Shown here one piece after another: positions 3,839 through 42,657 of a DNA stretch of 64,000 nucleotides. The notes under the pieces are model-generated. The model saw only the letters and a program-made list of their open reading frames with translations. It had not been told where the DNA came from and made no database searches. Location of the stretch: NCBI GenBank assembly GCA_049587755.1, contig JBAVEN010000082.1, positions 9,804-73,803 on the forward strand, written 5' to 3'. A program made the position numbers and the translations under genes. Each line of letters starts with the position of its first letter. Positions within the stretch are counted from its first letter, which is position 1. Source of the DNA: Bryobacteraceae bacterium (GTDB lineage: Bacteria > Acidobacteriota > Terriglobia > Bryobacterales > Bryobacteraceae).

Positions 3839-4549
<711 letters not shown>

Positions 4550-11314: not shown

Positions 11315-11709
11315 ACCGGGCCGCGGACATCCTCGGTTCGGCCCATACCATCGCGGTGGTGGGGCTTTCGGCCAGGCGCTTCCGTCCCAGCTATGGCGTG
11401 GCGGAGTACATGCAGCGGGCGGGATACCGCATCATCCCGGTCAACCCGAACGTTGCCGAGGTGCTGGGTGAAAAATCCTACGCGTCTCTGGACGCGATTC
11501 CCGAGCCGGTCGATATCGTCGATATCTTCCGCCGATCAGAGCACGTGCCGGAGATCGTGGAAGCCGCCATTCGCATCGGCGCCAAGGCGATTTGGATGCA
11601 GGAAGGCGTGCTGCATGAAGCAGCGGCGCGCCGCGCCGAATCGGCCGGCATAGCGGTGGCGATGGACCGCTGCATCCTGAAAGACCACCGCCGGCTGGTG
11701 CTCAAGTAG
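11311..11709 (+). CDS. CoA-binding domain protein (YccU/YneT-like)
   Basis: IAVVGLSARRFRPSYGVAEYMQRAGYRIIPVNP. ATGA overlap with rluB. Confidence 0.8.
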   Translation: MNRAADILGSAHTIAVVGLSARRFRPSYGVAEYMQRAGYRIIPVNPNVAEVLGEKSYASLDAIPEPVDIVDIFRRSEHVPEIVEAAIRIGAKAIWMQEGVLHEAAARRAESAGIAVAMDRCILKDHRRLVLK

Positions 11710-11801
11710 GGAAGACGTCTACCGGGCACTTGCGCCGCCATTCTGACTTCTGTTTTCTAAGGCATCGCGTGATGATGGCGCGCGTGCCAGCGCCGGCTCG
11801 C

Positions 11802-12131
11802 TCAGACGTGTGAATCGAGCATTTTCTGGACTTCGGACTTGCCAACGGCGCCGACCCGCTGCTCCACCACCTGCCCGCCCTTGAACAGCAGCAAGGTGGG
11901 AATGCCGCGGATGTTGTAGCGCATGGCCGTTTTGTCGTTGGCGTCCACGTCCAGCTTCCCGATCTTGGCTTTGCCGGCGTACTCGCTGGCCACCACGTCG
12001 ATGGTGGGGGCCATCATTTTGCACGGCCCGCACCACTCGGCCCAAAAGTCCACCAAAACCGGTACTTCCGCCCGAAGGACATCCTGGTCAAACGAAGAAT
12101 CGGTAAAGGTTAAGGTGTTCTGACCTGCCAT
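11802..12131 (-). CDS. trxA: thioredoxin
   Basis: 109 aa with WAEWCGPCK active site. GGAG lies upstream of the ATG. Confidence 0.92.
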   Translation of the reverse strand: MAGQNTLTFTDSSFDQDVLRAEVPVLVDFWAEWCGPCKMMAPTIDVVASEYAGKAKIGKLDVDANDKTAMRYNIRGIPTLLLFKGGQVVEQRVGAVGKSEVQKMLDSHV

Positions 12132-12173
12132 CTTATCTCCTACAATATTAGAATCGGCGCCGGGGAAAAGGAT

Positions 12174-13595: not shown

Positions 13596-13662
13596 ACCGG
13601 AATTGTACCAGGGGCATGGGGCGCATTGGATTTCGCCGGTTGCTTTTGTCACCATGATAGGC

Positions 13663-15222: not shown

Positions 15223-15425
15223 TAGCCCGCCGGGACTGATCGAGAATCTCGCGGGCAGGTCCGCATTGACTCATATAGGCACCGCATCTTCTGTGCCCAA
15301 TCCTGGTTTGCCGGCACTCAGTCGGCGCTGCGCTGCCTTGAGCCCGGATGGTCCTCGTGGATGCCCAGCGCTCCGGGCAGCTTGTCCGGCCTTGCCAGGC
15401 ATCTGAAACCCGGCCGCAGGCGGGA

Positions 15426-17204
15426 TCACCCAGCCGCCGGCGGAATGGTGACGCTGGTTTCGCCCCATCCGGACGGGCATTCGATCCTGATCCTAAGCTC
15501 GCGGGCTTCTTGAGACAAGGTCTGATAGCAAATCTCGTAACGCGCGTTGAGATTCAGGTAAGCTTCCTCGATGCGCGCGATGATTTCCTCGGGTGCGGCG
15601 GCATATGTATAACTGATGCGGGTCTTGTTGCAGAGGTCATCAAGGGCTGGGTTGGGGACCGACGAAATGACCTGGACCAAGCCGCGGGAGGCGCCAACGG
15701 TGGCCACCAGGCCGGGCCCGGCCCCGCCTTGGACTTGCTCGGCGGCAAAGAGGATCACGTGGCGTTTGCCGCGCGCCATGCTGGATTCGGCTCGCAGGGC
15801 CCGCCAAAGCGTTTGCCACACGTCGCCGCAGTCGGCGCGTTGGGCCATGCGGTGCAAGGAATCGGCCAGGACATCGTGACTAGGGGTGAAGGGCAGCTCT
15901 TCGTTAGCCTGGGTGGCGGATGCGGTTGCGAGGCCTTCACAGGCCGGCACCCACGATAGGTACGCCCACAAATCCGAAGCCCGCTTTCCAGCCAGGCAGC
16001 CGCGCGCACCGGTCACCCAGGGCGGCTCTTGCGCGTCGCCCGCGCGGGGAAACAGGAAGACGACGGACATGGCGGGCGGACTGGGGCGGACCGTCAGGCG
16101 GTAGTTCATCACCGGTTGCCCGTCTTCGCAAATGATGAAGTGGGTGGCGCGCAGCGTGGCCGCCGCGGAGCCCGGGGCAGCTACCGCTACTTGCACGCGC
16201 CGCATTTGTTTCGGCCCGGCGGCTGCGGCCGCAGCCATCGTTTCCAACATCAGGCTGGAGAGCCGCCAGGGCTGCCCCGCGGCCGCCTGAGCCACGGCTG
16301 CCTTGATGCGCGCGACTGAACGCAAGGCCCGCGAACGCACCATCGGGTGCGGGTCCCGCAGCAACCGCGCCACCGTGTCGCGAAACCGCCGATCCCCGGT
16401 CTCTCCCATCACCCAAGCGGCGGTGGCGCGGAAAACCGGCAACGGATGGGCGGCCAGCTTGATGGTTTCGGCGAGGGACACGGATTCGCCCATCGCGTAA
16501 AGCCCATACAGGGCATTGCCCACTACCCGGTTGCTGGCATCGTGCAGCGCGGCCAGCATCAACTCGCGCGCTTCCTCGGTTTCCACCCCCCATAACCCTT
16601 CGACGGCGTTGGCTCGCAGGCGGGGATCCGCGTCGCCCATGCGGCTTTGGACCCACATGGCGCTGCGGTTGCTGCGGCCCATGATGAGCGCAGCCTTAGA
16701 ACGAAGGTCGGCATCCGTCGAATGCAGCAAGCGGGCAAGCGAAGGCAGGATCCTGGCGCCGTCCGAGACGCGGGCCAGAATGGCCAGCACACGCGGTGCA
16801 TTTGCGGCGAGCAGGGGGTGCGTGCCGATAGTTACACCGTCGGCGAGATGCCGGGCCAGGCTCAGTTCCACACCGGGGTCTATCTGGATCGCCATGCGCA
16901 CCGCTGCCGCCGCCTCTTCGACGTCGAGAGACACTTCGCATAACAGCGATTCCAACAGATCGTTGGCAATCAGCAACCCCACCAGGAAGCGCAGACCGCG
17001 CGACGGTTCGCGGGCCCGAAGCGCTTCGATCACGCCGCGATAAAAGAGTTCGGGATCGTTCTCCAGCAGTTCTTCGACGATCCGCTGATTCCCGGCCGCA
17101 CCCATCGACATGCCAGCCACCAGGGCTGCGAAACCCGTCAGGGTGACGTCAGCAACCTTCCCGCTGCTGGTTGCATGTGGCAGCACATTCAACAAATCGG
17201 TCAA
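15426..17204 (-). CDS. HEAT-repeat protein with an uncharacterised C-terminal domain
   Basis: Repeated DADPRLRANAVEGL, NRVVGNALYGL, VFRATAAWVMGETGD and DPHPMVRSRALRSV units. The C-terminal ~250 aa has a vWA-like alpha/beta pattern (HVILFAAEQ). Start uncertain (TTG 17204). Confidence 0.6.
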   Translation of the reverse strand: MTDLLNVLPHATSSGKVADVTLTGFAALVAGMSMGAAGNQRIVEELLENDPELFYRGVIEALRAREPSRGLRFLVGLLIANDLLESLLCEVSLDVEEAAAAVRMAIQIDPGVELSLARHLADGVTIGTHPLLAANAPRVLAILARVSDGARILPSLARLLHSTDADLRSKAALIMGRSNRSAMWVQSRMGDADPRLRANAVEGLWGVETEEARELMLAALHDASNRVVGNALYGLYAMGESVSLAETIKLAAHPLPVFRATAAWVMGETGDRRFRDTVARLLRDPHPMVRSRALRSVARIKAAVAQAAAGQPWRLSSLMLETMAAAAAAGPKQMRRVQVAVAAPGSAAATLRATHFIICEDGQPVMNYRLTVRPSPPAMSVVFLFPRAGDAQEPPWVTGARGCLAGKRASDLWAYLSWVPACEGLATASATQANEELPFTPSHDVLADSLHRMAQRADCGDVWQTLWRALRAESSMARGKRHVILFAAEQVQGGAGPGLVATVGASRGLVQVISSVPNPALDDLCNKTRISYTYAAAPEEIIARIEEAYLNLNARYEICYQTLSQEARELRIRIECPSGWGETSVTIPPAAG

Positions 17205-28702: not shown

Positions 28703-29527
28703 ATGAATCCCCAGCCGCCCACTGCAGTGCCGAAGCTGCCGATCTCCGGCGTCAAGAGCCTGATCGCCGTCGGATCCGGCAAAGGCGGAGTCGGCAAGAC
28801 CACCGTGGCTGTGAACCTGGCTGTGGCGCTCGGCCAGCTCGGTTACAAGGCCGGCCTGATGGACGCCGACGTGTATGGCCCCAACGTGCCGCTGATGATG
28901 GGTATCAACCGCACGCCGATGGCTTTCGGGGAGCGCATCCAGCCGCTCGATCAATACGGCGTGAAGCTCATGTCGATGGGCTTCCTCAACCCCGGCGATA
29001 AGCCGCTGGTGTGGCGCGGCCCAATGCTGCATTCGGTGATCCAGCAGTTCTTGCGCGGCGTCGATTGGGGCGACCTGGATTACCTGGTGATCGACCTGCC
29101 GCCGGGCACCGGCGATGTGCAGCTTTCGCTGATTCAAACCGCCCCCATCACCGGCGCGATCGTGGTCACTACGCCCTCCGATGTGTCGCTCGAAGATGCG
29201 CGCAAAGCCGTGTTCATGTTTCACCAGGTGAAAGTGCCGATCCTCGGCATGGTGGAGAACATGAGCTACCTCATGTGCCCGCACTGCCACGAACGCATCG
29301 ACGTGTTCAGCCACGGCGGCGGCCGGCGGACGGCGGAGCAGATGCAGGTGCATTTTCTGGCCGAATTGCCGCTCGACCCGCAGGTGCGCATCGGCGGCGA
29401 CACCGGAAAACCGGTGGCGCTTCAAAAGGACGACCAGGAACCCTTCCTCGCCCTGGCGCGCAACACGGTCACGCGCGTCCAGGAAGTCGAACGCGAGACC
29501 GGCCCTAAAATCGAAATCAGCGAATAG
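28703..29527 (+). CDS. apbC: Mrp/NBP35/ApbC-family Fe-S cluster carrier ATPase
   Basis: GSGKGGVGKTTVAVNLA (deviant Walker A), DADVYGPNVP, and CPHC in MCPHCHERIDVF. Confidence 0.9.
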   Translation: MNPQPPTAVPKLPISGVKSLIAVGSGKGGVGKTTVAVNLAVALGQLGYKAGLMDADVYGPNVPLMMGINRTPMAFGERIQPLDQYGVKLMSMGFLNPGDKPLVWRGPMLHSVIQQFLRGVDWGDLDYLVIDLPPGTGDVQLSLIQTAPITGAIVVTTPSDVSLEDARKAVFMFHQVKVPILGMVENMSYLMCPHCHERIDVFSHGGGRRTAEQMQVHFLAELPLDPQVRIGGDTGKPVALQKDDQEPFLALARNTVTRVQEVERETGPKIEISE

Positions 29528-29717
29528 GGTGCGGCATACTTTTTAGCTTGCCCTTTGTTTTAAGGAACAATCCATTTCTGCGTCGCGTACGCGTTACTTA
29601 GGCCGCACCGCGCGCACTGCGCAGGCCGCGGGTTGTGCTAACAAATCGGAGGCTCACATCGGAAACTCAACTCAATCCAAGCCCGCTGCACCGCGGCTGA
29701 TCGCGGTTCTGCTACTG

Positions 29718-31559
29718 GTGGTGCTGGCCGCGCTGGCGGGCAGCGCGGCGTTCCGCGAATCCGTGGCAATCGACGAATTGGCGCACATCGGGGCTGGCGT
29801 CAGTTACTGGAAACTCGATTTGCGGATGAACCCCGAGCATCCGCCGCTGGTGAAGCTGCTGGCGGCCGCGCCACTGGTGGCGCGCGGCGCGCATGTCGAT
29901 TATCGGGGGCACATCTGGACCTGGAGCGGCCAGGGGCCTTTCAACCCCATGCTGGCCGAATTCCCGTTCGGCGCCTGGATCATCACGCACTGGAACGACC
30001 CTGCCACCACTTTGCGCTGGGCCCGCCTGCCAATGTTGCTGCTGCTGCTGGCCACCGGCCTGGCAATCTACCTCTTTGGCGAGCGGCTCGCCGGCGGCTG
30101 GGGTGGCGCATTCGCGCTGTGCTGGTTCGCCACCATGCCCACGTTTCTGACTTTTGGGCCGCTGGTGCTCACCGATACCGCTGTGGCGCTGTTTTCGATG
30201 GTCGCGCTCTGGACCTTCGCCACGCTTTGGCGCGACCAGTCGCGGAGCGCCATGCGCCGCTTCGCCGTCGCGCTCACTCTGGCGTTGCTTTCGAAATTCT
30301 CCGCCGGGTTGTTGCTATTCGTCTTCGCGGCGTTCCCGTTTGTGTTGCGCTGGCTGCCATTGGCCGGCCAGCCCGCCGCGCCCCAGTTCCCCGCCTGGTG
30401 GCGCCGCGGCTGGCGCCTCACCGGCAAAGCTGTGCTGATGGCGGCACTGATGGTTTACGCGGTTGAGTTCGTGCTCTCGTGGAACCAGCCGACTGATCTG
30501 CTCAAAATGATCGGCGGCGGATGGGCCGCGCTGGTACTGCGCCGGCTCCTGCTGCCGCTGGTGACCTACCTGGGCGGAGTCGTCATGTTCGCGATGGGAT
30601 CCGTCCGTCCGGCATATCTCTTCGGCCACGCGTATCCGCACGGCGTCTGGTTCTTCTTCCCGGTGGTGACGCTGCTGAAGTCCACCCTCGCGTTTGTGGC
30701 CGCGCTGGCTCTCAGCCTGGCGGCAGCGCTCGCCGGCCGCTTCGGGCGCGTGCGCGTCACGGCGGTACGCGCCGGCATGGAATTCCACTGGCGCGCTCTA
30801 TGGCTGGGGATGGCGATCATCACTTTTGTCTGCGTGATCAGCCCGATGACCATTTCCATCCGCCACTTTACGGTCCCGCTGGCGCTGCTCTCGCTGCTGC
30901 TGGCGCCGGTGCCGCGGCTGCTCGAAGATCTGCGCGATGCCGGCCGGCGGTGGGCGCGCCCCGCGATCTGGGTTGCGGCCGCGCTCGCAGCCGCTTCGGT
31001 GGTCACCGTAGTTCGCGCCTGGCCGTATTACATTCCCTTCCTGAATTCGTTCGCCGGCAGCCGTCCCGCTTATGAGTTGGTGAGCGATTCCAACCTGGAT
31101 TGGGATGTTGATCTGCCCGACGTCGAACGCTTCGTCCAGGCACACGGTCTGGACCAAGTGCTGGTCGATCCGTACAACGTCGCCGATCCGTCAGTTTATG
31201 TCCCGCAGGGCAGTTTGTGGGATTGCCAGGCGGCCACCGCCGCCGATGCAGGCCGCTGGGCGTTCGTTTCCGGCGACATGTTCGCCGACGGCGCAAACTG
31301 CGCCTGGATGCTGCCGATTCCCCACCAGGCTCTAGCCGGCGGCAGCATGTATGCGTTTCACCTTCCCGCCACGATTCCCGCGCCGGGTTCGCCGGGTGGC
31401 CCACCGCTTCCCGCCAACTACCGGTACATCGGCGGCGCCCCGTTCGACTGGCGAGGGATCTTCTATCGGGCGATTCGCGATCCCCAGCAGATGCAGGCCA
31501 TCATGGACGACATGATGAAGACATTCGCCGAGATGCAGAAGAACCAGAAGAAGAAGTAG
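29718..31559 (+). CDS. GT-C fold glycosyltransferase (GT39 / ArnT / PMT_2-like)
   Basis: Polytopic membrane protein. AIDELAHIGAG and EHPPLVKLLAA lie in the first loop region. Soluble C-terminal domain with a charged tail MQAIMDDMMKTFAEMQKNQKKK. The start codon is uncertain (GTG 29718; the frame is open further upstream without an ATG). Confidence 0.7.
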   Translation: MVLAALAGSAAFRESVAIDELAHIGAGVSYWKLDLRMNPEHPPLVKLLAAAPLVARGAHVDYRGHIWTWSGQGPFNPMLAEFPFGAWIITHWNDPATTLRWARLPMLLLLLATGLAIYLFGERLAGGWGGAFALCWFATMPTFLTFGPLVLTDTAVALFSMVALWTFATLWRDQSRSAMRRFAVALTLALLSKFSAGLLLFVFAAFPFVLRWLPLAGQPAAPQFPAWWRRGWRLTGKAVLMAALMVYAVEFVLSWNQPTDLLKMIGGGWAALVLRRLLLPLVTYLGGVVMFAMGSVRPAYLFGHAYPHGVWFFFPVVTLLKSTLAFVAALALSLAAALAGRFGRVRVTAVRAGMEFHWRALWLGMAIITFVCVISPMTISIRHFTVPLALLSLLLAPVPRLLEDLRDAGRRWARPAIWVAAALAAASVVTVVRAWPYYIPFLNSFAGSRPAYELVSDSNLDWDVDLPDVERFVQAHGLDQVLVDPYNVADPSVYVPQGSLWDCQAATAADAGRWAFVSGDMFADGANCAWMLPIPHQALAGGSMYAFHLPATIPAPGSPGGPPLPANYRYIGGAPFDWRGIFYRAIRDPQQMQAIMDDMMKTFAEMQKNQKKK

Positions 31560-31670
31560 GGCCGCGGGGCGTGATCGCTGGAGCCCACCTGAAAGCTCGG
31601 AAACTCGGGGTACATCGTTTACTCAGTGGCGCATTGAGTGTATACTGATACAACCTCGGAGGTAACCCGC

Positions 31671-32942
31671 GTGAATATCAGTAACTGGGAACACAAAGAC
31701 CGTCTGAAGGCAGCGTGGGACAAGCTCCCCGATGACAGGAAGGCCGCTATTCAACCATTGATCGACGCGGCGCACGAGCAACTGCGGACTTACCAGGCCA
31801 CAGGAAAGGTACCGCCGCCCGACCCCGCCGCTCCCCACCATCTCATACTGGCAAAGGGAGCACTTACCGACGATGCGGACGGTACCATCGCGGCCTTACC
31901 CGAATTGGAACCCGGAGCCATTGAGATTGCCGTGGACGCCGGGGGCGCAATCTGGGGCACTGGTGATTATCAGCAGCTCGATCCTGGTTGGTTAGGGGCG
32001 GCTGCTGCCTGGTTCGAGCACCTCATCCTGGGTAAGTACCCTTTTCCCAATGGAACCCCACCGGTGGGGATCGTCTCCGACAAGTTCACCATGGCCATCG
32101 CCGGAGACTTTGGAACCGGAGACTGGGGCACAGCGGCCAATCCGGCCCCTAGCACGAAGATACGTCGGGCAATTCCCGGACTCGCTCCGGACCTCACCAT
32201 CCACTTAGGCGATGTCTACTATGAAGGGTCCTCCGACGAGGAGATAGGCAACTTTGTGGACGTGTGGCCGCAAGGGCCCGCAACGGCTGCCAGCTATACG
32301 TTGAACTCCAACCACGAAATGTATTCCGGGGCGAAGCCCTATTTCGTCGAAGCGCTGAACAGTCCGCTCTTCGCGGCGCAAAGGCCGTACAGCTTCTTCG
32401 CGCTGGAAAACGCCAATTGGGTGATAGTGGGACTCGATTCGGCTTACTATTCGGACGAACTCACGCTCTATATGAACGGTTCGTTGGGCAAGAGCGCTCA
32501 AGTCGACTTCCTCAAAGCTCAGGCGCAAAAGGGCAAAAAGGTGATTCTGTTTACACACCACAACGGCCTGTCGGAGGACGGCTCCACGCCCACCGGCCTG
32601 TGGAACGAAGTGATGAGCTGTTTCCCCGCGGGCTCCGGACCTGCCTACTGGTATTGGGGGCACGTTCATGCGGGCGCGGTTTATCAGCCCCGCAACGGCG
32701 TCCAGTGCCGGTGCAGCGGCCATTCAGCGCTGCCGTGGGGATATGCTTCCGAGCTCGCCAATCCGAACGTTGCCTGGTTCGAAAAACGCAACGCCGGCGA
32801 CCCGAATGACACCCTGAGAGTCTACAACGGATTTACTTTTCTCCAACTGACCGGCACTGGTCTGACCGAGACCTTCTACGACGAGAATGGCCGCGTTGCG
32901 TGGCCTGCGAATCAGACCGCGCCAGCCGCCGCTGCAGGATAA
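31671..32942 (+). CDS. calcineurin-like metallophosphoesterase
   Basis: AIAGDFGTGDWG, IHLGDVYYEG, NHEMYSG, FTHHNG and WGHVHAG motifs. GTG 31671 lies 8 nt after GGAGG (31658-31662). Confidence 0.75.
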   Translation: MNISNWEHKDRLKAAWDKLPDDRKAAIQPLIDAAHEQLRTYQATGKVPPPDPAAPHHLILAKGALTDDADGTIAALPELEPGAIEIAVDAGGAIWGTGDYQQLDPGWLGAAAAWFEHLILGKYPFPNGTPPVGIVSDKFTMAIAGDFGTGDWGTAANPAPSTKIRRAIPGLAPDLTIHLGDVYYEGSSDEEIGNFVDVWPQGPATAASYTLNSNHEMYSGAKPYFVEALNSPLFAAQRPYSFFALENANWVIVGLDSAYYSDELTLYMNGSLGKSAQVDFLKAQAQKGKKVILFTHHNGLSEDGSTPTGLWNEVMSCFPAGSGPAYWYWGHVHAGAVYQPRNGVQCRCSGHSALPWGYASELANPNVAWFEKRNAGDPNDTLRVYNGFTFLQLTGTGLTETFYDENGRVAWPANQTAPAAAAG

Positions 32943-33075
32943 GCAGAGAGCTCGACCATTTTGGGGAGGCTTTGGAGCCGACCACCCAGACCTCCTGCGT
33001 TCCCGCCGTACTCAGATGCCGCCCGCTGCTCTCGCTGCTTGCGGCCGGCTCTCCGGAAGGTGCATCATCAGATTC

Positions 33076-34902
33076 ATGCATGCCAGACTTGTCGCGCGAT
33101 TCGCTTGTTTCCTCGTTCCTGTTCTTCTCTTCGCCCAGCCGCCGAAGAAGAAGATCACGCGGGCGGCAGACGTCCCGGTATTCCACTACTCCATCAACGG
33201 GAAGGTCGAGGACCTCGTCCGCTCCGAACAGGCCTTCCGCCCGTTCGCAGCCCAGGTCAGGACCAATGTGGAGTCCGTGCTGCGCGATTACGAGATCGAC
33301 GACGCAGCCACCAAGCGCGGCCTGCTCGGAACGCTGGTTGCCCTGGATGTTCTCGAAGGCCACGACGACGCGGCCCGCCGGGGGCTGGACGAGATCAAAG
33401 CCCTCGAAGAAAAACCCGCGGCCAAGGCCTTGAGCGGTTTGATCACCCGCTCCATCCTCGATGCGCGGCGCGAATCCGGCGACCGCAATTCGCTCGCCTA
33501 CCGCAAGGCCGTCTACGCCGCGGTCATGCGCGCTCTCGACCCCCTGCCCTTCGATGTCGTGCAGAACGATTTGAAGTCCACCAAGGCCTATATCGAGATC
33601 GCCTCGGAATCAATTCTGATTGGCCAGATCCAAGCGAGTTTTGACCCCGTGGTGGAAAAGACCGGCGGGCTCAGTTCCGACCTGGCGCACGACCTGCCCG
33701 GCATTCGCATGTACCTGGTGGAGAGAATCCCGCTGAAGGACACTCTGAATGAGGCACTGGGCGCGTACCTCTCCGCGCACGCCAAGGAGAAGCAAGACAT
33801 CTGGACCGCGCGCGACGTCACGTTGGAGCCGGGCAAGAACTATCAACCCGTCAACGTGGCCGTGTGGGACACCGGGGTTGACCTGGCGATCTTCCGGGAT
33901 CGCGTGCTAAAAGACTCCATAGGCCAACCGGCCGTCCTGGCCTACGACATCGAGAGCCGCAAGACCACTGGCAATCTGTACCCCCTAAACGCCGCACAAT
34001 TGGAGCGCTACCCGCAAGCCAAGCAGGAATTGAAGGGGCTTTCCGACCTGCAAGCCAACGTGGAAAGTCCCGAATCCACCGAGCTGAAGCAGGCCCTGGC
34101 CAAGCTCAAGCCGGATCAGGTAAAGCCCTTCATTGAAGAACTCTCATTATTCAGCATCTACGCGCACGGCACCCACGTGGCGGGCATCCTCACGGCCGGC
34201 AATCCCTACGCGCGCCTCGTGGCCGGCCGCATTACCTTCGACTGGAAGATGATTCCCGACCCATGCCCTTCGCGTGCGCTAACCGACCGCGGAGCCGCTG
34301 CCGATCATGACTACGTGGACTTCTTCAAGAGGAACAAGGTAAGGGTCGTGAACATGAGTTGGGGCGGTTCGGTCAAAGATTACGAAGATGACATGGAGAA
34401 GTGCGCCATCGGCAAGGACGTTGAGGAGCGGAAAAAGATCGCCCGTGAGTGGTTCGAGGTCGAGAAGGGCGCACTGGAAAAAGCCATGCTCTCCGCGCCG
34501 GATATCCTCTTCGTGGCTGCAGCCGGCAACAGCAATGGCGATTCGAGCTTTGAGGAAGCCATCCCGGCCGGCCTGAAGGTCCCGAACCTGCTCACCGTAG
34601 GAGCGGTCGATAAGGCCGGCGACGAGGCCTCATTCACCAGCTACGGTCCGACCGTGGTGGCGGACGCCAACGGCTACGAGGTGGAGAGCTACATCCCCGG
34701 CGGCGACCGCCTCAAAATGTCGGGCACCTCGATGGCCTCGCCCAACGTGGCCAATCTGGCGGCCAAGATCCTGGTCGTGAATCCGAAGCTTACTCCGCCG
34801 CAGGTAATCGACATTATCCGCCAGACCGCCGAGAAAACGGCCGACGGCCGCCGCAACCTGATCGACCCGAAGAAGGCCATCGCCGCGGCCCAGGCCATGT
34901 GA
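33076..34902 (+). CDS. secreted S8 (subtilisin-like) serine peptidase
   Basis: Signal peptide MHARLVARFACFLVPVLLFAQ. Catalytic triad contexts VAVWDTGVD, HGTHVAGIL and SGTSMASPNVANLAAK. Confidence 0.85.
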   Translation: MHARLVARFACFLVPVLLFAQPPKKKITRAADVPVFHYSINGKVEDLVRSEQAFRPFAAQVRTNVESVLRDYEIDDAATKRGLLGTLVALDVLEGHDDAARRGLDEIKALEEKPAAKALSGLITRSILDARRESGDRNSLAYRKAVYAAVMRALDPLPFDVVQNDLKSTKAYIEIASESILIGQIQASFDPVVEKTGGLSSDLAHDLPGIRMYLVERIPLKDTLNEALGAYLSAHAKEKQDIWTARDVTLEPGKNYQPVNVAVWDTGVDLAIFRDRVLKDSIGQPAVLAYDIESRKTTGNLYPLNAAQLERYPQAKQELKGLSDLQANVESPESTELKQALAKLKPDQVKPFIEELSLFSIYAHGTHVAGILTAGNPYARLVAGRITFDWKMIPDPCPSRALTDRGAAADHDYVDFFKRNKVRVVNMSWGGSVKDYEDDMEKCAIGKDVEERKKIAREWFEVEKGALEKAMLSAPDILFVAAAGNSNGDSSFEEAIPAGLKVPNLLTVGAVDKAGDEASFTSYGPTVVADANGYEVESYIPGGDRLKMSGTSMASPNVANLAAKILVVNPKLTPPQVIDIIRQTAEKTADGRRNLIDPKKAIAAAQAM

Positions 34903-34920
34903 CGCCGTGGCGTCTCTTCT
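34901..34920 (+). terminator. candidate intrinsic terminator after the S8 peptidase gene
   Basis: GACGC-CGTG-GCGTC hairpin (34901-34914) followed by TCTTCT. It overlaps the TGA stop. Confidence 0.4.
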
Positions 34921-34969
34921 GCAGGGTCACGTTTCGCTTGCGGTGACAAACCGACCTACGTCGGAATCG

Positions 34970-35075
34970 CTATTCCGACTCCGACACTGTCAGCCTCTCC
35001 GCCAGCCTTATCTTCCCTCTTAACTCGATCGTCGCTGAGCTTCGTCCTACAAGAACCTCGAACTCGCCAGGATCC
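34970..35075 (-). pseudogene. orphan copy of the last ~35 codons and stop of the GH3 gene
   Basis: Aligns with 39988-40093. The core TCTTCCCT.T.A.CTCGATCGTCGCTGAGCTTCGTCCTACAAGAAC.TCGAACTCGCC.GGATC has about 5 mismatches in 63 nt. It encodes DPGEFEVLVGRSSATIELRGKIRLAERLTVSESE*, versus DPGEFDVLVGRSSATIELKGKIHLGAPLTVAAAE* in the real gene. No upstream gene body is present. Confidence 0.75.
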
Positions 35076-35243
35076 CCCGGCGGCCCGCCTCTGCCCGCCA
35101 GCTACCGCTACATCGCTGGCGCCCCGTTCGACTGGCGGAGGACATTGTATCGGGCGATTCGCGACCCCAATCAAATGCAGAACATCATGGACGACATGAT
35201 GAAACAGTGCGACGAGATGCAAAAGCAGCAGACGAAAAAGTAG
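35072..35243 (+). pseudogene. orphan copy of the last ~56 codons and stop of the GT39-like gene
   Basis: Aligns with about 31390-31559 at roughly 80% identity. It encodes PPGGPPLPASYRYIAGAPFDWRRTLYRAIRDPNQMQNIMDDMMKQCDEMQKQQTKK*, versus GSPGGPPLPANYRYIGGAPFDWRGIFYRAIRDPQQMQAIMDDMMKTFAEMQKNQKKK* in the real gene. It abuts the GH3 fragment directly. Confidence 0.75.
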
Positions 35244-35350
35244 CGGCGCCGAGTTTTAGCGGATCAGTGGCGGATATGTCCCGTCTGTCCCTTCGCCCTC
35301 TGTCCCTTCGCCCTCCTGTAGTGGGCATCCAACAATCGCGGGCCGCGGCC

Positions 35351-38300
35351 CTAGTTGAGTCTGCCAAGGTATTTATCCAGCCACGCCAACACTTCCCTCG
35401 ACAATGCGTCCTTCTGCTGGCTAACGCCGTGCGGCGTATCGAAGACCACATGGCGCTTTTCCGCGTTCGGTGTCCCGATCATCCGAAACATCGGCTCTTG
35501 CGCCCGGTCGGGCGAAAAGGTAAAGTCGAACCGGCCATTGACCATCAGCACGGGCTTGGTCAAACGAGGGGCGAAATTCACCTGGTCATCTGCCGGCAGA
35601 GGGGGCGTCAGGAAGAAGCCTCCATCGAGGAAGACGATGGCTTTGAAGCGCGGTTCCAATGCCGCAAAAATGACGCCGTAGGCGGCGCCCCAGCTTGCTC
35701 CCAAATACGCGATTCTGGTCTTGTCGATCTCCGGGCGGGTTTCGAGAAAGTCGATTGTTCGCCCTATTTCCTTGGAGTGCTGGATAACTTGATTCAGGTC
35801 CCCGATGGCTCCGGGCGCAACGAATGTGCCCGAGTGTTCGTAGGTCCCCGTGTAAATCGGGTAGACCAGTGCACGGCCACTCTTGATGACGTAGTCGACG
35901 TCTTCCATGTCGCCAAGATCCTGGCTGCTGGGCATACTGATCACGCCGGCGCTCGGAAAGAAAAGCACGGTTTGATACGGCGGACGGACGTTCCTCGGGA
36001 GAAAGAGGTAGAGCGGGAGGCGTTCGTCCTCGTGTCCCGCATCGATCGTGATTTTCTCCTTGGTCCAATCGGCTGTGTTCTCCGCGACGCCTTCCGATTT
36101 CGCGTTCAGCGGCGCATGGTCGTAGGCGTACATGACCCGGTAAGCCTGAAACACTTCGTCCGGGACGGGTCTTGCCTTGGTGAAGTCCCTCACCTGCCGG
36201 ACCAGGGGTGCAGCAACCGCGGCCGGGATTGGTCCTAGATTCCGCACACAGCGGAAGCCGTTCAAAGCCGAGCGGTCGAACGGCGGCAGGGCTTCCGGAT
36301 CGTATGCCAGATAGGTCTGCGTTCGCCAAGCCCCGCCTAAGATGAAGCGGCGGTCCCCATCGACGGCGTTCCAGCTCCATTCCCTGACATTTCCGCTCAT
36401 GTCATAGGTGCCATAGGGACCGACGCCGGGAAATGTCCCAACCGGGACCGGCCCCCGGCCATTAAAGTTGCTTTGATTGATGCGATAAACGACGAAGTCG
36501 GAGGGCGCGGCCTTATACCACTGCAGGATGACGGGCAGGCTCTTGCCGGCAAAGGCCGCATAAGCAGCGGCCTCATACCAGCTCACGCCTGACACGGGGC
36601 AGTCGGCTTGGGTCGGTGGGAAATGGCCGCCCTCCCAGGTGGAGGGCCCCGGACGGCCTGTGGGATCGCGAAACAAGTCCATGGCCTGCCGCCAGGTCAG
36701 TTCCTTGCCGCCGTTGATGAACTTTTCCTTCCAGTACTCAGATTTTCGATAACCGCCCTGATCCACGAACTCCTGATATTGGCGGTTGGTCACTTCAAAC
36801 CGATCGATGTCAAACGGCGGAAGCTCGTGCTCCAGCCATCCGAGGAAATCAATCATCTCCCCGGAGTCGCCGCCCGGCACGGGAACCATGCCGACAGGTG
36901 TTCCCTCAGCGGGCAACGCGAACCGCATGTTGTCCTTTGTCTCCGGCGCTGCGACGAATTCCGGTGCGCCCGGTCGGGAGACCCTCCAACGAAAGTATCC
37001 GTTGGGGATACGCACCCTCGTGAGGGGAGTCGCGCCCAAAGAAAACCAGGCGCCCGGCGTGACATAATCCTGAATCTCCACCTTCGATCCGGCGGGCACC
37101 GACTGGGCGGAAATGAGGCGGGTCGAGGACTGCGCAAGTTGCGCGAGCGCTGGATCGCCTGGCAGAACCCGCTCTGCCCTGCGCAACAGGAGGAACGCGG
37201 CGAGAGGCTGTTTCGAGACCAGCCGGGAGATCTCCGGGATCGCCTGCTCGCGCACCCAGTGCCGTTGCTCCGAGCGCTGGTAGAACAACACTCCTGCGGC
37301 TGCGAGCAAGAGAAGGATCACCACTGCGGGAATGGCATATATCGGCCGCAGCAGGGAACGCACGCCCTGCAAAGACGGAGCGGCGAGCCGGCCGGCAAGC
37401 GCGGACAACTCCTGGGACACGTCGAACGCGGACTGGCAGCGTTTGGACGGGTCTTTTTCCAGGAGTTTCTCCACCAGCCTGTCCAGGCTGGCTGGAATTC
37501 CAGCGCGCTCCTGAGACGGCGCAGGTGTCGCAGCAGGAGAGCCGCTCGAGAGCATCTGTCCCAGCGACGCTCCCGGAAACGGAAGCCTCCCGGCGGCCAT
37601 TTCGTAGAGAACCAAGCCTAGTGAGAACAGGTCCGTGGCACTAGTGGGCTCCCGGCCCTCCACCTGTTCGGGAGCCATATAGGCGGGCGTGCCCATGATC
37701 GCGCGGCTCTCGGTAATGCCAGATTCGGACAGCATCTTGGCGAGCCCAAAATCCAACACTTTTACGCCGTGGCGGGTGAGCATGACGTTGGACGGTTTCA
37801 AGTCGCGATGCACGATTCCGCGCGCATGCGCCTCCGCCAGCGCGCTTGCAATCTGTGCTCCATAGCGCGCCACGACTTCAGTGGCCAGTGGGCCTCTCTT
37901 GATTTCCGCTGCCAGAGTGGAGCCTTCGATGAGCTCCATGACCAGGTAGTTTGGGCCGACGTCGTAGAGCGTGCAAACGTGGGGATGGTTTAGCGTGGAA
38001 ATCGCCCGAGCTTCGAGTTGAAATCGTTCGCTATAGCGTTCGGACGCAATCTTGATGGCAACCACGCGCCCCAATCGCGTATCGACGGCGCGGTAGACGG
38101 TTCCCATGCCTCCGGCACCGATCTGGGCTTCGATCTTATAAGGACCGAGCTGCGCTCCCGCGGAAACGACGGTTCGCGTAGGCTCGGTCAGGAAGCCTTC
38201 GAGCGGCTGGAAAATCTGACTACCGGATTCCACTTCCAGCATTCGTTCCACGCGGGAGCGGATTTCGGGATCTGTACACGCCAGCAGGGCCGCGCGCTCG

Positions 38301-38365
38301 TTGGGATTACGCTGCTGCGCCGCGTGGTATAGATCTTCGATTTGGCGGAATTGCTCCGGTGTCAT
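35351..38365 (-). CDS. Ser/Thr protein kinase fused to a TM helix, an FGE/SUMF1-like domain and an alpha/beta-hydrolase domain
   Basis: Kinase motifs GAGGMGTVYRA, VAIK, HRDLKPSNVML, DFGLA, GTPAYMAPE. TM helix IPAVVILLLLAAAGVLFY. FGE-sulfatase-like YQEFVDQGGYRKSEYW, VSWYEAAAYAAFAGKSLP and YDMSGNVREWS. C-terminal hydrolase with IAYLGASWGAAYG (GxSxG). Confidence 0.85.
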   Translation of the reverse strand: MTPEQFRQIEDLYHAAQQRNPNERAALLACTDPEIRSRVERMLEVESGSQIFQPLEGFLTEPTRTVVSAGAQLGPYKIEAQIGAGGMGTVYRAVDTRLGRVVAIKIASERYSERFQLEARAISTLNHPHVCTLYDVGPNYLVMELIEGSTLAAEIKRGPLATEVVARYGAQIASALAEAHARGIVHRDLKPSNVMLTRHGVKVLDFGLAKMLSESGITESRAIMGTPAYMAPEQVEGREPTSATDLFSLGLVLYEMAAGRLPFPGASLGQMLSSGSPAATPAPSQERAGIPASLDRLVEKLLEKDPSKRCQSAFDVSQELSALAGRLAAPSLQGVRSLLRPIYAIPAVVILLLLAAAGVLFYQRSEQRHWVREQAIPEISRLVSKQPLAAFLLLRRAERVLPGDPALAQLAQSSTRLISAQSVPAGSKVEIQDYVTPGAWFSLGATPLTRVRIPNGYFRWRVSRPGAPEFVAAPETKDNMRFALPAEGTPVGMVPVPGGDSGEMIDFLGWLEHELPPFDIDRFEVTNRQYQEFVDQGGYRKSEYWKEKFINGGKELTWRQAMDLFRDPTGRPGPSTWEGGHFPPTQADCPVSGVSWYEAAAYAAFAGKSLPVILQWYKAAPSDFVVYRINQSNFNGRGPVPVGTFPGVGPYGTYDMSGNVREWSWNAVDGDRRFILGGAWRTQTYLAYDPEALPPFDRSALNGFRCVRNLGPIPAAVAAPLVRQVRDFTKARPVPDEVFQAYRVMYAYDHAPLNAKSEGVAENTADWTKEKITIDAGHEDERLPLYLFLPRNVRPPYQTVLFFPSAGVISMPSSQDLGDMEDVDYVIKSGRALVYPIYTGTYEHSGTFVAPGAIGDLNQVIQHSKEIGRTIDFLETRPEIDKTRIAYLGASWGAAYGVIFAALEPRFKAIVFLDGGFFLTPPLPADDQVNFAPRLTKPVLMVNGRFDFTFSPDRAQEPMFRMIGTPNAEKRHVVFDTPHGVSQQKDALSREVLAWLDKYLGRLN

Positions 38366-38496
38366 ACTCGCCGCGTCGCTCGATGATTCCTACATCCTAC
38401 GCCATTCCCGACCAGCCAGTTGTGAGTGGCCACAGTCGGCAAACACGAAAAAGGGCCAGAGCCTCGCGCTCTGGCCCCGGTTGACTCCGAAGCACA

Positions 38497-38943
38497 TTAC
38501 CGCGTCGGAACGGTCGCAGCGATGGGAATCATCTGTGCGGCTTCCCGCTCTTCGGTAGCGGTCCCGTGCTTAGGTGTGTGCGGCGCATAATAGAGAACCA
38601 CGCCGATATCCGGCAGGCGAATCTCGCGCACCGTGCTGCCGGTCTTGCCGTTGTCGATCACCAACTCGGCTGGGCCGGCCACTGCCGGATCGTGACTCTG
38701 GGGCAGCACCGTGGCCACCACTTTTCCGTTTTCCCTTACTTGCAGCATGTTGCCGGTTCTCAAGCCCTGCAGGTTGAAGGTGTAGTCGCCCGCCTGCAAG
38801 GTCGCTGTACCCCAGCGGACTTCAGACGGGAGGGAGAATTTCCCTTGGAACGATTGTGCGCTCGCAGCTGCGACGCCCAGGCCGAATAACAGAACCCCCA
38901 GCGCCAGGGTGCGGAGCAGCGTGTTGTTTCGATTCGATGTCAT
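38497..38943 (-). CDS. small secreted hypothetical protein
   Basis: ATG 38943 lies 5 nt after AAGGAGG. Signal peptide LLRTLALGVLLFGLGVAAASAQ. Beta-rich mature part with no recognisable family. It sits between the sigma and kinase genes. Confidence 0.6.
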   Translation of the reverse strand: MTSNRNNTLLRTLALGVLLFGLGVAAASAQSFQGKFSLPSEVRWGTATLQAGDYTFNLQGLRTGNMLQVRENGKVVATVLPQSHDPAVAGPAELVIDNGKTGSTVREIRLPDIGVVLYYAPHTPKHGTATEEREAAQMIPIAATVPTR

Positions 38944-39259
38944 GACGAACCTCCTTAATGTTCGTTGTTGGCCAACCCTCAAGTTGCCTTCACCCTGATA
39001 TGCGCAAACCCGTTCCTGAAAGGGTCAACCGCAGCCAAAATAGTTCGGCAGTCAGCCGAGAGATCCGCCGCTATCCGCGCCCGAAGTGATGGAGCAGGCG
39101 CGGACTCCATCCGCCTGGACCGCGAACCCGGCATTACCTGGATGTCAATCCGGCGATCAACGAGTTTGATTCAAGTGCAGTCGAGCAGCAGGGTAGATCG
39201 GTTCGTGGGTAGACGGTTTAACGAAGAGATGCCGCGGCAAGGCATTGGCTAGCGCCGTT

Positions 39260-39823
39260 CTACCGAGACAGCTCGTGCTTTAGCCAAGCGCGGGCTAATT
39301 TCCAGTCGCGCTTGACGCTTTCCGAGGAGATCTTCAGCACCTCGGCGGTTTCCTTCACGCTCAGGCCACCGAAAAAGCGCAGTTCCACCACTTTGACTTT
39401 GCGGGCATCGAATCGCGCCAACGATTCGAGCGCCTCGTCCAGATCCACCAGCCGGCTGTCCAGTTCGGGTAGGGCATCGATGGATTCGTTTAGATCCAGT
39501 CGCACCACTCCTCCTCCGCGCTTGCGGGACCCGCGGGCCCGCGCTGCATCCACCAGGATGCGCCGCATAATCTGGGCAGAGATGGCGAAGAAATGGGCCC
39601 GGTCCTGCCATTGTACGCCGGTGACATCCACCAGACGCAGGAATGCCTCGTTGACCAGGGCAGTCGCTTGCAACGTGTTCCCTGGTTGTTCCCTCCGCAT
39701 GTAGCCCCTGGCCATGCGGCGCAGTTCTCCGTAAACCAGCGGCATCAACTGCTCCAGCGCTGCGCGGTCGCCGCCGCACCAGGCGCGAAGTAAACGCGTG
39801 ACCTGCGCCGTTTGAGAATCCAC
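39260..39823 (-). CDS. ECF sigma factor, TIGR02999 / ECF43-like (Ser/Thr-kinase-associated type)
   Basis: VTRLLRAWCGGDRAALEQLMPLVYGELRRMARGYMRREQPGNTLQATALVNEAFLRL, WQDRAHFFAISAQIMRRILVDAARA, VVELRFFGGLSVKETAEVL and VKRDWKLARAWL. GTG start at 39823. Confidence 0.85.
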   Translation of the reverse strand: MDSQTAQVTRLLRAWCGGDRAALEQLMPLVYGELRRMARGYMRREQPGNTLQATALVNEAFLRLVDVTGVQWQDRAHFFAISAQIMRRILVDAARARGSRKRGGGVVRLDLNESIDALPELDSRLVDLDEALESLARFDARKVKVVELRFFGGLSVKETAEVLKISSESVKRDWKLARAWLKHELSR

Positions 39824-39852
39824 TTATCGGAATTATAGCCCCGGTTTGCAAG

Positions 39853-39946
39853 GCAACGCGGTAAGCAACGCGGTGACAAGCAACGCGGTGACAGACAAGC
39901 AACGCGGTGACGACAAGCAACGCGGTGACAGCAACGCGGTGACAGA
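39853..39946. repeat. irregular array of six direct repeats GCAACGCGGT(G/A)A
   Basis: Copies start at 39853, 39865, 39880, 39899, 39917 and 39931, giving spacings of 12, 15, 19, 18 and 14 nt. The array lies between the GH3 stop (39988) and the sigma start (39823), next to a minus-strand TATAAT at 39832-39837. Confidence 0.85.
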
Positions 39947-39987
39947 CGGGACGTTTCACGAAACCGCGCCAGGACTCTGCGCGATCT

Positions 39988-42657
39988 CTACTCCGCCGCC
40001 GCCACCGTCAGCGGCGCACCAAGGTGAATCTTCCCTTTCAGCTCGATCGTCGCTGAGCTTCGTCCTACAAGAACGTCGAACTCGCCGGGATCGGCGCGCC
40101 ATAACTTGCCTTTCACATCGTAATAAGTGAACGCCCGGGGCTCGAGCGCGATGCTTACTTGCTTTGTCTCGCCTGGCTTCAGCTCGACTTTCGCAAATCC
40201 CTTCAGTTCCTTGGGCGGGCGTGGAACGGAGGCGTGGCTGTCGCCGATATAAAGCTGCGCCACTTCGGCACCGGCGCGCTTGCCGGTGTTGGTCACTTCG
40301 AACGTCACTTCATACATACCGTCCTTGGCGCCCGGCTTGATTGCGAGCTTGCCGTAGCGGAAGGTGGTGTAGGACAAGCCCTGGCCGAAAGCAAACGCCG
40401 GCGTCACGCCGTTGTGTTCGTAGCCGCGATAGCCCACAAACACGCCGTTGCGATACACCACGCGGCGCGTGCCGGGATCGGGATAGTAGCTGTCGTGCGC
40501 CGGGTTATCCTCCCAGCGCTTCTCGATGCTGATGGGCAGGCGCCCGGAGGGGTTCACATCGCCGAGCAGGATCTCCGCCAGCGCCGTGCCGCCCGCCTGG
40601 CCGGGATACCAGGCGTAGATCAAGCCCGGCACGCGGTCCAGCCAGCCGTGCACGTCCACGCCGCCGCCGGCCGTAATCACCACCACCGTCTTCTTGTTGA
40701 TAGCGGAGATCTCGCGGATCAGCTCATCCTGCCCAATAGGCAACTGGAAGGTGCGGTCACCGCCTTCGCTCTCATTGCTGTCGTTGAAGCCCACTGCCAG
40801 CACCACCACGTCCGCCTTCGCCGCCATCGCCTTGGCCACGGGATCCACCAGGCTCGCCTGCGGCGCGATGCCTACTCGCACCACGTCGCCATGAAAGTTG
40901 AAGCCGCCTTGATACTTCTCGAAGACCACTTGGTGCGGCCCGGCGGCGAGATCGAGCGTCGCCTGGTCCACCATCGCCTTGCGCACCGTCCAGCCATCCA
41001 GAATCGGCTTGCCATCCAGGTAAAGCCGGTAGCCGCCCACGGCATCGGTCGGCGATTCGGCGAAAACCTCGTAGACACCGGCGGTCTTGGCGGTGTAGTA
41101 GCCGCTCCAGCGCATCGACGTGGCTTTGTGCGGGTGGCTCAGCAGCGCGGCAAAGTCCGCGCCGGTCGCCAAATCGGCCATCGCGAAGGCTGGAGCGACG
41201 TTGATGTGCCGGGCTATGCGTGTCTCGGACGGCGCGCCGGAGAGATCCTGGTTGGCGAAGATTTCCATCTTCAGGCCGGCCTCCCCGCCGCCAGCTTCGG
41301 TGGTGAACTCGGTGCTATTGGCGATCCGGCCCCGATCCGGCAGGCCGGGGTTCCACAACACGTTGGCTCTCGCGCCCAGCTTGTCCGTCAACCCTTCCAG
41401 AAAACTGACCGCGGCAAACGGCTTCACACCGGCGCTGCCGCCTGCGTTCGGCACCGCCGGATACGCGCCTGGGCCGATCAGCGCGATGGTCTTGTCGGTG
41501 CCGGCATCGATCGGCAGCAGGTTGCCTTCGTTTTTCAGTAGCACCATGGATTCGCGCGCGGCCTGAAGCGCCACCTGCGCGCCGGTGAAACTGTACCGCG
41601 GAATCGTCAGGTCCGTCTGCTCCCGGTCGAGCCAGCCGAAACGGACCGCCACGCGCAGAATGCGGCGCACCTTGTCGTCAATGGTGGCCATCGAGACCTG
41701 CCCCTTTTCGATCGCCGGCAGCAGGGTGGCGCGGTTCATGTGGTCGCCGGCGGGCATCTCTAGGTCCAACCCGCCGTTGGCCGCCGCTACCCCGTCGTAG
41801 GTGGCCCACCAGTCGGACATCATGATGCCGTCGAAGCCCCAGGTCTGCTTGGCAATTTCGGTGTTGAGGCGCGAACTCTCGGTGAGGCGCTGGCCATTGG
41901 TGAGGTTGTAGGAATCCATCACGGCGCCGGCGTGCGCGCGTTTTACGGCGGCCTCGAAGATGGGCAGGTAGATCTCGCGCATGGCGCGTTCGTCGATGAT
42001 GGCATCTACGTTGTGGCGGTCGAACTCCGAATTGTTGCCCATGAAGTGCTTGATGGTCGCCGATACGCCCAGCTTCTGCATGCCCTCGATGTAGCTGACG
42101 GCGATGCGCCCGCCTAGAAACGGGTCCTCGCCGAAGTATTCGAAGTTGCGCCCGTTCATGGGCGCGACGTAGATATTGACGCCCGGACCGAGCATGAAGT
42201 GAACGCCGCGCGCGCGGGCATCGGCGGCGATGGCGCCGCCCACGCGCTCCGCCAGCGCCGGGTTCCACGTGGCCGCCAGGGCGATTCCGCCTGCCATCGT
42301 GGTGGCCGGTCCGTCGTTGCGCGCGCCCATCGGCCCGTCCGACGTCTTCAGCTTCGGCAGCCCGAGCCGCGGGATGGCTCGGATATAGAAGCCGTCCACT
42401 CCTCCGATCAGGTCGATCTTCTCTTCGGTCGTCATCCGCTTCAGGATGTCGGAGACCCGCTTCTCGGTGTCGGAGACCCGCTTCTCGGTGTCGGAGACCC
42501 GCTTCTCGGTGTCGGAGACCCGCCTCTCGGTGTCGGAGACCCGCTTCTCGGTGTCGGAGACCCGCTTCTCATCGGCCGCAGCAGCGGCCATCAGGGGCGC
42601 GGCGAACAAGGCCGCACAAAGCAAACCGGCAAGCTCGTAAGGAATGGCAGGAATCAT
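39988..42657 (-). CDS. glycoside hydrolase family 3 beta-glucosidase (BglX-like) with an inserted PA14-like domain
   Basis: Signal peptide, then MTTEEKIDLIGG, KHFMGNN, GIMMSDW (nucleophile context), a PA14-like insert (EIFANQDLSGAP...YRLYLDGKPILDGW) and an Fn3-like C-terminus. Confidence 0.9.
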   Translation of the reverse strand: MIPAIPYELAGLLCAALFAAPLMAAAAADEKRVSDTEKRVSDTERRVSDTEKRVSDTEKRVSDTEKRVSDILKRMTTEEKIDLIGGVDGFYIRAIPRLGLPKLKTSDGPMGARNDGPATTMAGGIALAATWNPALAERVGGAIAADARARGVHFMLGPGVNIYVAPMNGRNFEYFGEDPFLGGRIAVSYIEGMQKLGVSATIKHFMGNNSEFDRHNVDAIIDERAMREIYLPIFEAAVKRAHAGAVMDSYNLTNGQRLTESSRLNTEIAKQTWGFDGIMMSDWWATYDGVAAANGGLDLEMPAGDHMNRATLLPAIEKGQVSMATIDDKVRRILRVAVRFGWLDREQTDLTIPRYSFTGAQVALQAARESMVLLKNEGNLLPIDAGTDKTIALIGPGAYPAVPNAGGSAGVKPFAAVSFLEGLTDKLGARANVLWNPGLPDRGRIANSTEFTTEAGGGEAGLKMEIFANQDLSGAPSETRIARHINVAPAFAMADLATGADFAALLSHPHKATSMRWSGYYTAKTAGVYEVFAESPTDAVGGYRLYLDGKPILDGWTVRKAMVDQATLDLAAGPHQVVFEKYQGGFNFHGDVVRVGIAPQASLVDPVAKAMAAKADVVVLAVGFNDSNESEGGDRTFQLPIGQDELIREISAINKKTVVVITAGGGVDVHGWLDRVPGLIYAWYPGQAGGTALAEILLGDVNPSGRLPISIEKRWEDNPAHDSYYPDPGTRRVVYRNGVFVGYRGYEHNGVTPAFAFGQGLSYTTFRYGKLAIKPGAKDGMYEVTFEVTNTGKRAGAEVAQLYIGDSHASVPRPPKELKGFAKVELKPGETKQVSIALEPRAFTYYDVKGKLWRADPGEFDVLVGRSSATIELKGKIHLGAPLTVAAAE
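42448..42573 (-). repeat. in-frame 21-bp tandem repeat (6 units) in the GH3 N-terminus
   Basis: GTCGGAGACCCGCTTCTCGGT repeated from 42448. Unit 4 has one T>C change and unit 6 diverges at its 3' end. It encodes (EKRVSDT) x6 directly after the signal peptide. Confidence 0.9.

Follow-up and report, generated by a model that had tools for sequence, protein, structure and literature searches.

Fused gene-end remnants at a variable GT39-GH3 slot of an uncultured Bryobacteraceae bacterium: a probable case of haplotype stacking

Described routes to exchanged and stacked cargo

Replacement-type flexible genomic islands, such as glycosylation or O-antigen loci, are exchanged by homologous recombination in the flanking genes. 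The locus described here, which lies between a GT39-like glycosyltransferase gene and a GH3 beta-glucosidase gene, resembles these islands in that conserved genes frame variable cargo, divergence reaches the ends of the flanking genes and a glycosyltransferase is involved. Flexible islands result from clean double crossovers that leave no stubs, whereas one side of the present exchange appears to be illegitimate and both cargoes were kept.

Homology-facilitated illegitimate recombination (HFIR) has one homologous end and one illegitimate end, the latter at a microhomology of 3–10 bp, and the intervening resident DNA is lost (PMC3240628). Experimentally, it has been shown only in transformation of Acinetobacter baylyi, Streptococcus pneumoniae and Pseudomonas stutzeri, and in conjugation of E. 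coli (PMC3240628). Our locus shares with it a joint at a short GC-rich microhomology, the loss of resident DNA and the absence of a dedicated recombinase gene. It differs from the experimental cases in several respects. The insert is about 4.9 kb long, compared with the 1 kb or so that is typical in experiments. Donor and recipient apparently share the flanking genes, and the illegitimate end, falling inside a homologue-bearing slot, would have left two recognisable stubs. HFIR depends on RecA and on the entry of linear DNA by transformation or conjugation. The present event was inferred, not observed, from sequence alone in the natural genome of an uncultured acidobacterium.

Stacking at T6SS and Rhs loci is the closest natural parallel that we found. 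At Vibrio cholerae T6SS effector-immunity loci and at Rhs/CDI loci, orphan arrays grow by displacement, and HFIR has been proposed (PMC5361080). As in those arrays, a conserved gene would have served as the homology anchor, and a module was added while the old 3' part was displaced as a remnant, which amounts to stacking and not replacement. Unlike them, the locus offers no toxin-immunity logic or selective rationale for keeping a remnant. Its stubs are non-coding, its cargo consists of regulatory and hydrolytic genes, and its homology anchor lies at the 3' end of one of two convergent genes, where the known arrays have a constant 5' region.

Clean natural fossils of one-sided recombination are uncommon. 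Because the ends of both parental genes can be seen here together with the microhomology and with a sister genome whose left side is undisturbed, the sequence allows the mechanism of gene gain to be read. It is of a known kind that is rarely documented, and we claim no new mechanism or molecular system.

The scar and its surroundings

The window, the whole 64 kb stretch of DNA analysed, comes from an uncultured soil and peat member of the Bryobacteraceae (Acidobacteriota), a placement based on the relatives of the window genes. L-numbers denote the related contigs and loci compared with it. A planctomycete origin had been prompted by the pairing of an ECF sigma factor with a kinase and was rejected, as the relatives belong to Bryobacteraceae, Acidobacteriota. 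The sister species is represented by L005 and L098, which belong to the same or nearly the same species as each other and share 98% (ParA), 96% (metallophosphoesterase), 92% (S8 peptidase) and 96% (p198) protein identity with the window.

On the left, the intact PMT_2/GT39-like glycosyltransferase gene (29718..31559, plus strand; Pfam PF13231) has orthologues with 73–91% amino acid identity at 12 Bryobacteraceae loci. Its tail A (31383-31559, plus strand) is the counterpart, in the tail alignment, of the stub A' discussed below. A first islet, X1 (31638..34902, plus strand), holds a metallophosphoesterase gene (MPE, 31638-32942; Pfam Metallophos) and an S8 peptidase gene (33076-34902; Pfam Peptidase_S8). 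Alignment to the sister species identifies the 34903..34969 segment as the S8-GH3 intergenic spacer, retained with a GH3 remnant. This remnant, B' (34970..35074, minus strand), comprises, by codon alignment, the 34 terminal codons and stop of GH3, in a sister-species-type allele. It is joined to A' (35067..35243, plus strand), which consists of the 58 terminal codons and stop of a GT39-like gene, in an allele unlike that of the intact gene. The spacer that follows (35244..35314) was seen solely in contigs of the same species.

The second islet, X2 (35315..39850, minus strand), is a discrete kinase/sigma module by its Pfam and NCBIfam content. It encodes a Ser/Thr kinase-FGE-sulfatase protein with Pkinase and FGE-sulfatase domains (35351-38365, minus strand), a 148/161-aa protein with no assigned family (38497-38982, minus strand) and an ECF sigma factor (39260..39823, minus strand; Sigma70_ECF, PF07638/TIGR02999), the last being the true gene as opposed to a longer overlapping ORF. 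A spacer (39851..39987) separates the sigma module from the stop of the intact GH3 beta-glucosidase gene (39988..42657, minus strand; Pfam), the protein of which is 85–86% identical to that of the nearest other species. The GH3 tail B (39988-40092, minus strand) is the counterpart of B'. Pfam and NCBIfam thereby confirm the gene identities proposed in the earlier note on this DNA. GC content is 0.58–0.66 throughout, without a step at the joint. Between ParA and p198, the domains of the genes (Pfam/NCBIfam) included no integrase or transposase, and neither a tRNA nor an Rfam element was found there.

Self-BLASTN of the window aligned 35065-35249 with 31381-31565 (+/+, 81.7% of 186 nt, E 3e-46) and 34966-35074 with 39984-40092 (+/+, 80.7% of 109 nt, E 6e-24). 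No further repeats were seen in the 64 kb except for two weak pairs near 4–8 kb and an array of 21-nt tandem repeats. In codon-level alignments, the A'/A and B'/B pairs are direct, ungapped and in frame, with their TAG stops aligned. Similarity ends abruptly at the inner ends of both stubs, and nothing is shared past the microhomology. The stubs overlap in GCCAGGATC (35066..35074), a microhomology of 8–9 nt that can be read either as where B' ends or as where A' begins, and that is common to the GH3 tail, where the sister allele is identical, and the GT39 reading frame. At the equivalent sites, the intact GT39 gene reads GCCGGGTTC (31382-31390) and the intact GH3 gene reads GCCGGGATC (40084-40092). 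All elements are direct in the order A ... B'|A' ... B, which is a head-to-tail topology.

Self-BLASTN and codon alignment thus confirm the description in the earlier note of truncated GH3 and GT39-like 3' ends fused back to back, and the intact genes agree with its 9-nt match, GCC(A/G)GGATC, common to both parents. Its coordinates are off by about 5 nt at most; the first base of the GT39 copy is 35067, which gives it 58 codons, not about 56. Neither stub is a usable ORF. The frame of A' has no start codon before 35145, that of B' is closed by a TAG at 35102-35104, and no ORF with a start codon was found in the stubs. Searches at the scar found no promoter-like site, Rfam family or tRNA, and its RNA folding, being no better than that of shuffled sequences, gave no stable fold. 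The sole terminator-like hairpin of the scar region is a weak one at the S8 stop.

Of the remaining repeats, the 21-nt array lies within GH3 (42436-42570; 6.4 copies, 95% matches) and encodes EKRVSDT repeats after the signal peptide. Their copy number varies among strains of the same species, with proteins of 889, 882 and 861 aa. The weak pairs are a direct repeat (4280-4456 and 7444-7620, 70% identity, E 3e-13) and an inverted repeat (7776-7840 and 7923-7985, 84% identity, E 2e-10).

The junction is real and not an assembly error. The same joint recurs in no fewer than eight further contigs of this Bryobacteraceae species, which come from various samples and assemblers. The joint-bearing contigs (L093-L096, L123-L128) stem from independent MAG, metagenome and Logan assemblies and are as long as 1.7 Mb in one case, with others of 112 kb and 226 kb. 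Every contig returned by a look-up with the exact ParA has the same composite locus. Between the S8 and kinase stops, a distance of 448 nt, same-species contigs are identical or differ by one SNP (35051 A/C). An assembly chimera at about 35075 has next to no probability. It would account for short-read assemblies breaking at this point, as in the Logan contig L130, which ends 151 nt past the S8 stop and inside B', and in L005, which ends within the GH3 fragment. The recurrence of an identical joint, also in the 226 kb and 1.7 Mb contigs, contradicts it, as does the segregating SNP, which is what a real locus would show. The short-read graph breaks at B' because B' is a real repeat of the GH3 tail: it is identical to B over a 33-nt run up to 35056, and L130 stops in this run.

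The SNP at 35051 is the sole within-species polymorphism in the scar. A C is found in all relatives and in L093, L124 and L128, and an A in the window and five other contigs. The A equals the base in the intact GH3 tail (40069) and may represent a point mutation or a tiny conversion patch.

The GT39-GH3 slot in relatives

The order ParA - GT39> ... <GH3 - p198 recurs in more than 10 related lineages with different or absent cargo, so that the expectation of the earlier note, that GT39 and GH3 would be convergent neighbours in close relatives, was borne out by the synteny comparison. The slot is a variable islet framed by these two conserved genes. About 1.3 kb separates them in L001, while the slot of L008/L099 holds small ORFs and a ParE toxin gene, that of L009 a metallophosphoesterase gene alone, directly beside GH3 and without S8, and that of L005/L098 both metallophosphoesterase and S8 genes. 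GH3 is absent from L002 and L012. A metallophosphoesterase gene is thus present in the slot in three lineages (the window, L005/L098 and L009), and the kinase module in this species only. None of the relatives has a duplicated slot with homologous interiors.

Homologues of the S8 peptidase with 88–91% amino acid identity were found in three or more unrelated genomic settings (L106; L107-L110; L111-L113). Since S8 homologues sit elsewhere and the L009 metallophosphoesterase gene adjoins GH3 without S8, it is probable that S8 entered the slot earlier, on its own. A search through these homologues, which lie in unrelated contexts, did not find an intact empty site of the order GT39-MPE-S8-<intact GH3.

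The kinase/sigma module also has homologues outside the slot. Its 35315-39850 segment is 96.4–96.7% identical in nucleotides to the module in other contexts, with sharp ends at 35315/35329 and 39850. In L114-L121 it lies downstream of an integrase gene (integrase-NmrA-p437-sigma-p148-kinase-FG-GAP), in L104 beside an HNH gene (kinase-p98-HNH) and in L122 beside AhpC (kinase-AhpC). The sigma-p148-kinase module behaves like a discrete transferable unit, and it looks like a recent traveller. The putative donor order GT39*-kinase/sigma-GH3* was not found among kinase-bearing metagenome contigs, the protein database or cluster members. In one of the other contexts, a tyrosine recombinase gene is located about 3 kb away. 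Tandem repeats lie directly outside both module ends in the window: a 15-nt unit present in 2.1 copies (35284-35315) and a 15–19-nt unit in 3–5 copies, AAGCAACGCGGTGAC (39853-39944). These flanking repeats might be filler from an earlier end-joining insertion. The array at 39853-39944 lies immediately upstream of the ECF sigma gene and could consist of operator or promoter repeats or of insertion filler.

The sister species has a scar of its own. In L098, the slot contains S8, a 205-codon 3' fragment of GH3 (15807-16442), genes for PadR and a MacB-type permease (12763-15706) and a full GH3 gene (10001-12583). The fragment is 97–100% identical to the full gene over about 540 nt, and 52–85% over its last 100 nt or so. 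A GT39 stub is lacking, and the breakpoint is not that of the window. It appears that stacking took place in this slot a second time, probably independently and through GH3 homology, from a donor that would be almost conspecific save for the islet and the linked gene tail. Because of this parallel scar, we suggest that the GT39/GH3 frame has served repeatedly as a point of entry. That the slot is a recurrent, recombinase-free hotspot of cargo stacking, in which cassettes linked to divergent 3' ends of the framing genes are added as well as swapped through one-sided homologous recombination and GH3 is the habitual anchor, is a more tentative idea that we consider possible but doubtful. If it is true, two sister species record independent events, with a kinase/sigma module in one and PadR-MacB in the other.

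Origin, direction and age of the joint

The left side of the joint follows the sister species up to its last base. From 21959 to exactly 35074, the window is collinear with L005/L098 at 91.6% identity (92–99% in nucleotides across islet X1), after which the sister continues into GH3. The 34903-35074 segment is 95.3% identical to 15160-15331 of L005, where it likewise runs on into GH3. Sister-type GH3 sequence past the equivalent of 35074 is present in L005/L098 and absent from the window, which means that resident DNA was lost or replaced. The identity of B' is 94.3% with the sister fragment and 81.0% with tail B of the window. Of 26 informative sites in B', 22 match the sister, among them the two nearest to the joint (35057, 35069), and the four that do not are scattered. 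Because B' is sister-like in both measures, we regard it as the stump of a GH3 allele that belongs with the MPE-S8 block, and not as a copy of the present GH3. The window's GH3 is clearly nearest to the sister just from about 41235 rightwards, as is p198. Sliding identity hints at a homologous crossover in GH3 at about 41200, and noise in the block-wise dS against six lineages prevents its placement. GH3 looks mosaic in all lineages.

On the right side, A' and A differ at 34 of 177 positions, mostly third codon positions (80.8% identity). Their dS is 0.83 and their dN/dS 0.15 (95% bootstrap 0.05–0.36), compared with a dN/dS of 0.05–0.16 between orthologous GT39 tails of different species. Decay of a dead copy after duplication in place gives a much higher ratio, and from this codon pattern A' must have diverged mostly as the end of a working gene, under purifying selection. 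In the identity matrix, the tails nearest to A' are those of L009 (85.3%) and L003 (84.2%), ahead of the window's own A. The stub itself appears to be mosaic: its 35074-35138 segment has two mismatches in 65 nt (97%) to the real GT39 tail of the sister, compared with 6–10 for other lineages, and the rest of A' has 26 mismatches in 102 nt to the same tail.

The intact GT39 gene also stands apart from its surroundings. Identity between window and sister breaks sharply at about 29500-29700 and about 31600, at both ends of GT39. The gene is 87.6% identical to that of the sister in nucleotides overall (78–89%), with a dS of 0.43, compared with 0.07 for ParA and 0.075 for MPE, and in it window and sister are not mutual nearest relatives. 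A whole-gene allelic replacement or an old polymorphism likely explains this.

We propose, with a probability of roughly 75%, that an HFIR-type event in one direction or the other stacked two alternative haplotypes of the slot. The two sides of the joint come from different haplotypes, as B' is sister-like and A' is only 80.8% identical to A; the microhomology falls within the 3–10 bp range of HFIR (PMC3240628); and GH3 beyond the joint is intact and in frame. Islets X1 (31560-34969) and X2 (35244-39987) have no significant similarity in BLASTN or TBLASTX. An event with the kinase/sigma side incoming and anchored in GH3, to which we give an even chance, would have proceeded as follows. The resident chromosome would have had the order ParA - GT39 - MPE - S8 - <GH3 that is still recognisable in the sister species, and the incoming DNA, from a related strain or species, a slot of the order GT39* - kinase/sigma module - <GH3*. 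The right side of the incoming DNA would have paired homologously with resident GH3. The left end, which lay in GT39* 58 codons ahead of the stop, would have been joined illegitimately to the resident gene 34 codons ahead of its own stop, at the shared GCC(A/G)GGATC. Dead stubs would thereby have been left back to back, one with the final 34 codons of the resident gene and one with the final 58 of donor GT39*, the kinase/sigma module would have been added and not exchanged, and a complete GH3 would have been restored from donor and resident sequence. Both the one-sided homologous step and its direction are what we infer here.

Of the two readings offered in the earlier note, this one, in which HFIR brings in the block from GT39 tail through kinase and sigma to GH3 tail, fits best; the diverged donor that the note invoked may be a close relative with another haplotype. 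The result would be the addition of a regulatory module (ECF sigma plus Ser/Thr kinase) beside a hydrolase pair without any mobile-element gene.

The alternative reading in the earlier note was a tandem-duplication joint. The head-to-tail topology that suggested it is there, but its simple form was rejected. The interiors X1 and X2 are dissimilar, and the tails are not mutual nearest relatives, B' being sister-like and A' nearer to L009 and L003 than to A, with an A/A' dN/dS of 0.15. A duplication from GT39 tail to GH3 tail followed by homologous replacement of the interiors and outer tails would preserve the topology and might leave the stubs partly sister-like and the intact tails not, at a locus where replacements are evidently frequent. 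It needs at least three events, however, its interiors retain no similarity, no relative has a duplicated slot with homologous interiors, and the distal 100 nt or so of A' are unlike the sister tail (26 mismatches in 102 nt); we consider it improbable. Marginally less probable still is the excision of the donor islet as a circle at the microhomology of the GT39 and GH3 tails, followed by a Campbell-type single crossover in the GH3 tail. This would give the same topology, and circularisation followed by a single crossover is documented for incoming DNA in E. coli (PMC3240628). The 33-nt run shared by B and B' speaks for it, yet the shared homology is just 105 nt at 81% identity, and B' is of the sister type at 22 of 26 sites up to the joint, with no crossover visible upstream of the last 5 nt.

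Direct 3'-end repeats around inserted DNA also resemble the attL/attR sites of elements that insert at gene ends, which could point to a site-specific mobile element that brings its own replacement tails when it integrates at gene 3' ends. Such an element is very improbable and close to refuted: there is no recombinase gene from ParA to p198, a tRNA is absent, the repeats share no more than about 81% identity, their two pairs are interleaved and not nested, and the parallel scar of the sister lies at a different GH3 position without a GT39 stub.

In the mirror case of the HFIR reading, an incoming GT39-MPE-S8-<GH3 tail would have entered a resident GT39(tail A')-kinase/sigma-<GH3 slot, with homologous pairing on the left (ParA/GT39 start) and the illegitimate joint in resident GT39, 58 codons before its stop. 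The sister-like start of A' agrees with it, intact tail A having about 10 mismatches where A' has two. So does the unlikeness of the intact GT39 gene to the sister, since the identity breaks at its ends are expected if it co-entered with MPE-S8, and the dS of MPE, being below background, suggests recent exchange on the MPE-S8 side. The sister-like start of A' and the non-sister-like intact GT39 fit the mirror case at least as well as the opposite direction. The lineage would, however, have had to lose MPE (and perhaps S8), present in the slot of the sister and L009, and then regain it. A single donor fragment would be unevenly distant from the sister (dS of 0.43 for GT39, 0.075 for MPE and 0.20 for S8), and the kinase module, 96–97% identical elsewhere and absent from the slot in all other lineages, would have to be the older resident despite looking like a recent arrival.

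Both directions need one further replacement event. We favour entry of the kinase side over the mirror case by roughly two to one, which makes the latter unlikely. We do so because MPE occupies the slot in three lineages and the kinase module only here, because the dS of S8 and B' to the sister (0.20 and 0.17) equals the genome background of 0.21–0.36, and because the module looks recent from its near identity to copies in other contexts.

The earlier note had called the rearrangement datable. Only a time bracket can be given, and a closer date for the stubs would take the donor allele. All same-species contigs are 99.7–100% identical and all have the joint, which places the event before the sampled population of the species spread. 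If the kinase side was the incoming one, the event would postdate the split from the L098 species (dS about 0.25).

Strains of this species differ elsewhere as well. About 6–8 kb upstream of ParA (about 2000–4000 in L123-L125), they vary in PemK, MazE-like, PIN and Phd toxin-antitoxin genes, and an AAA_15/SMC-like gene in the same region also differs among them. This region is another variable spot.
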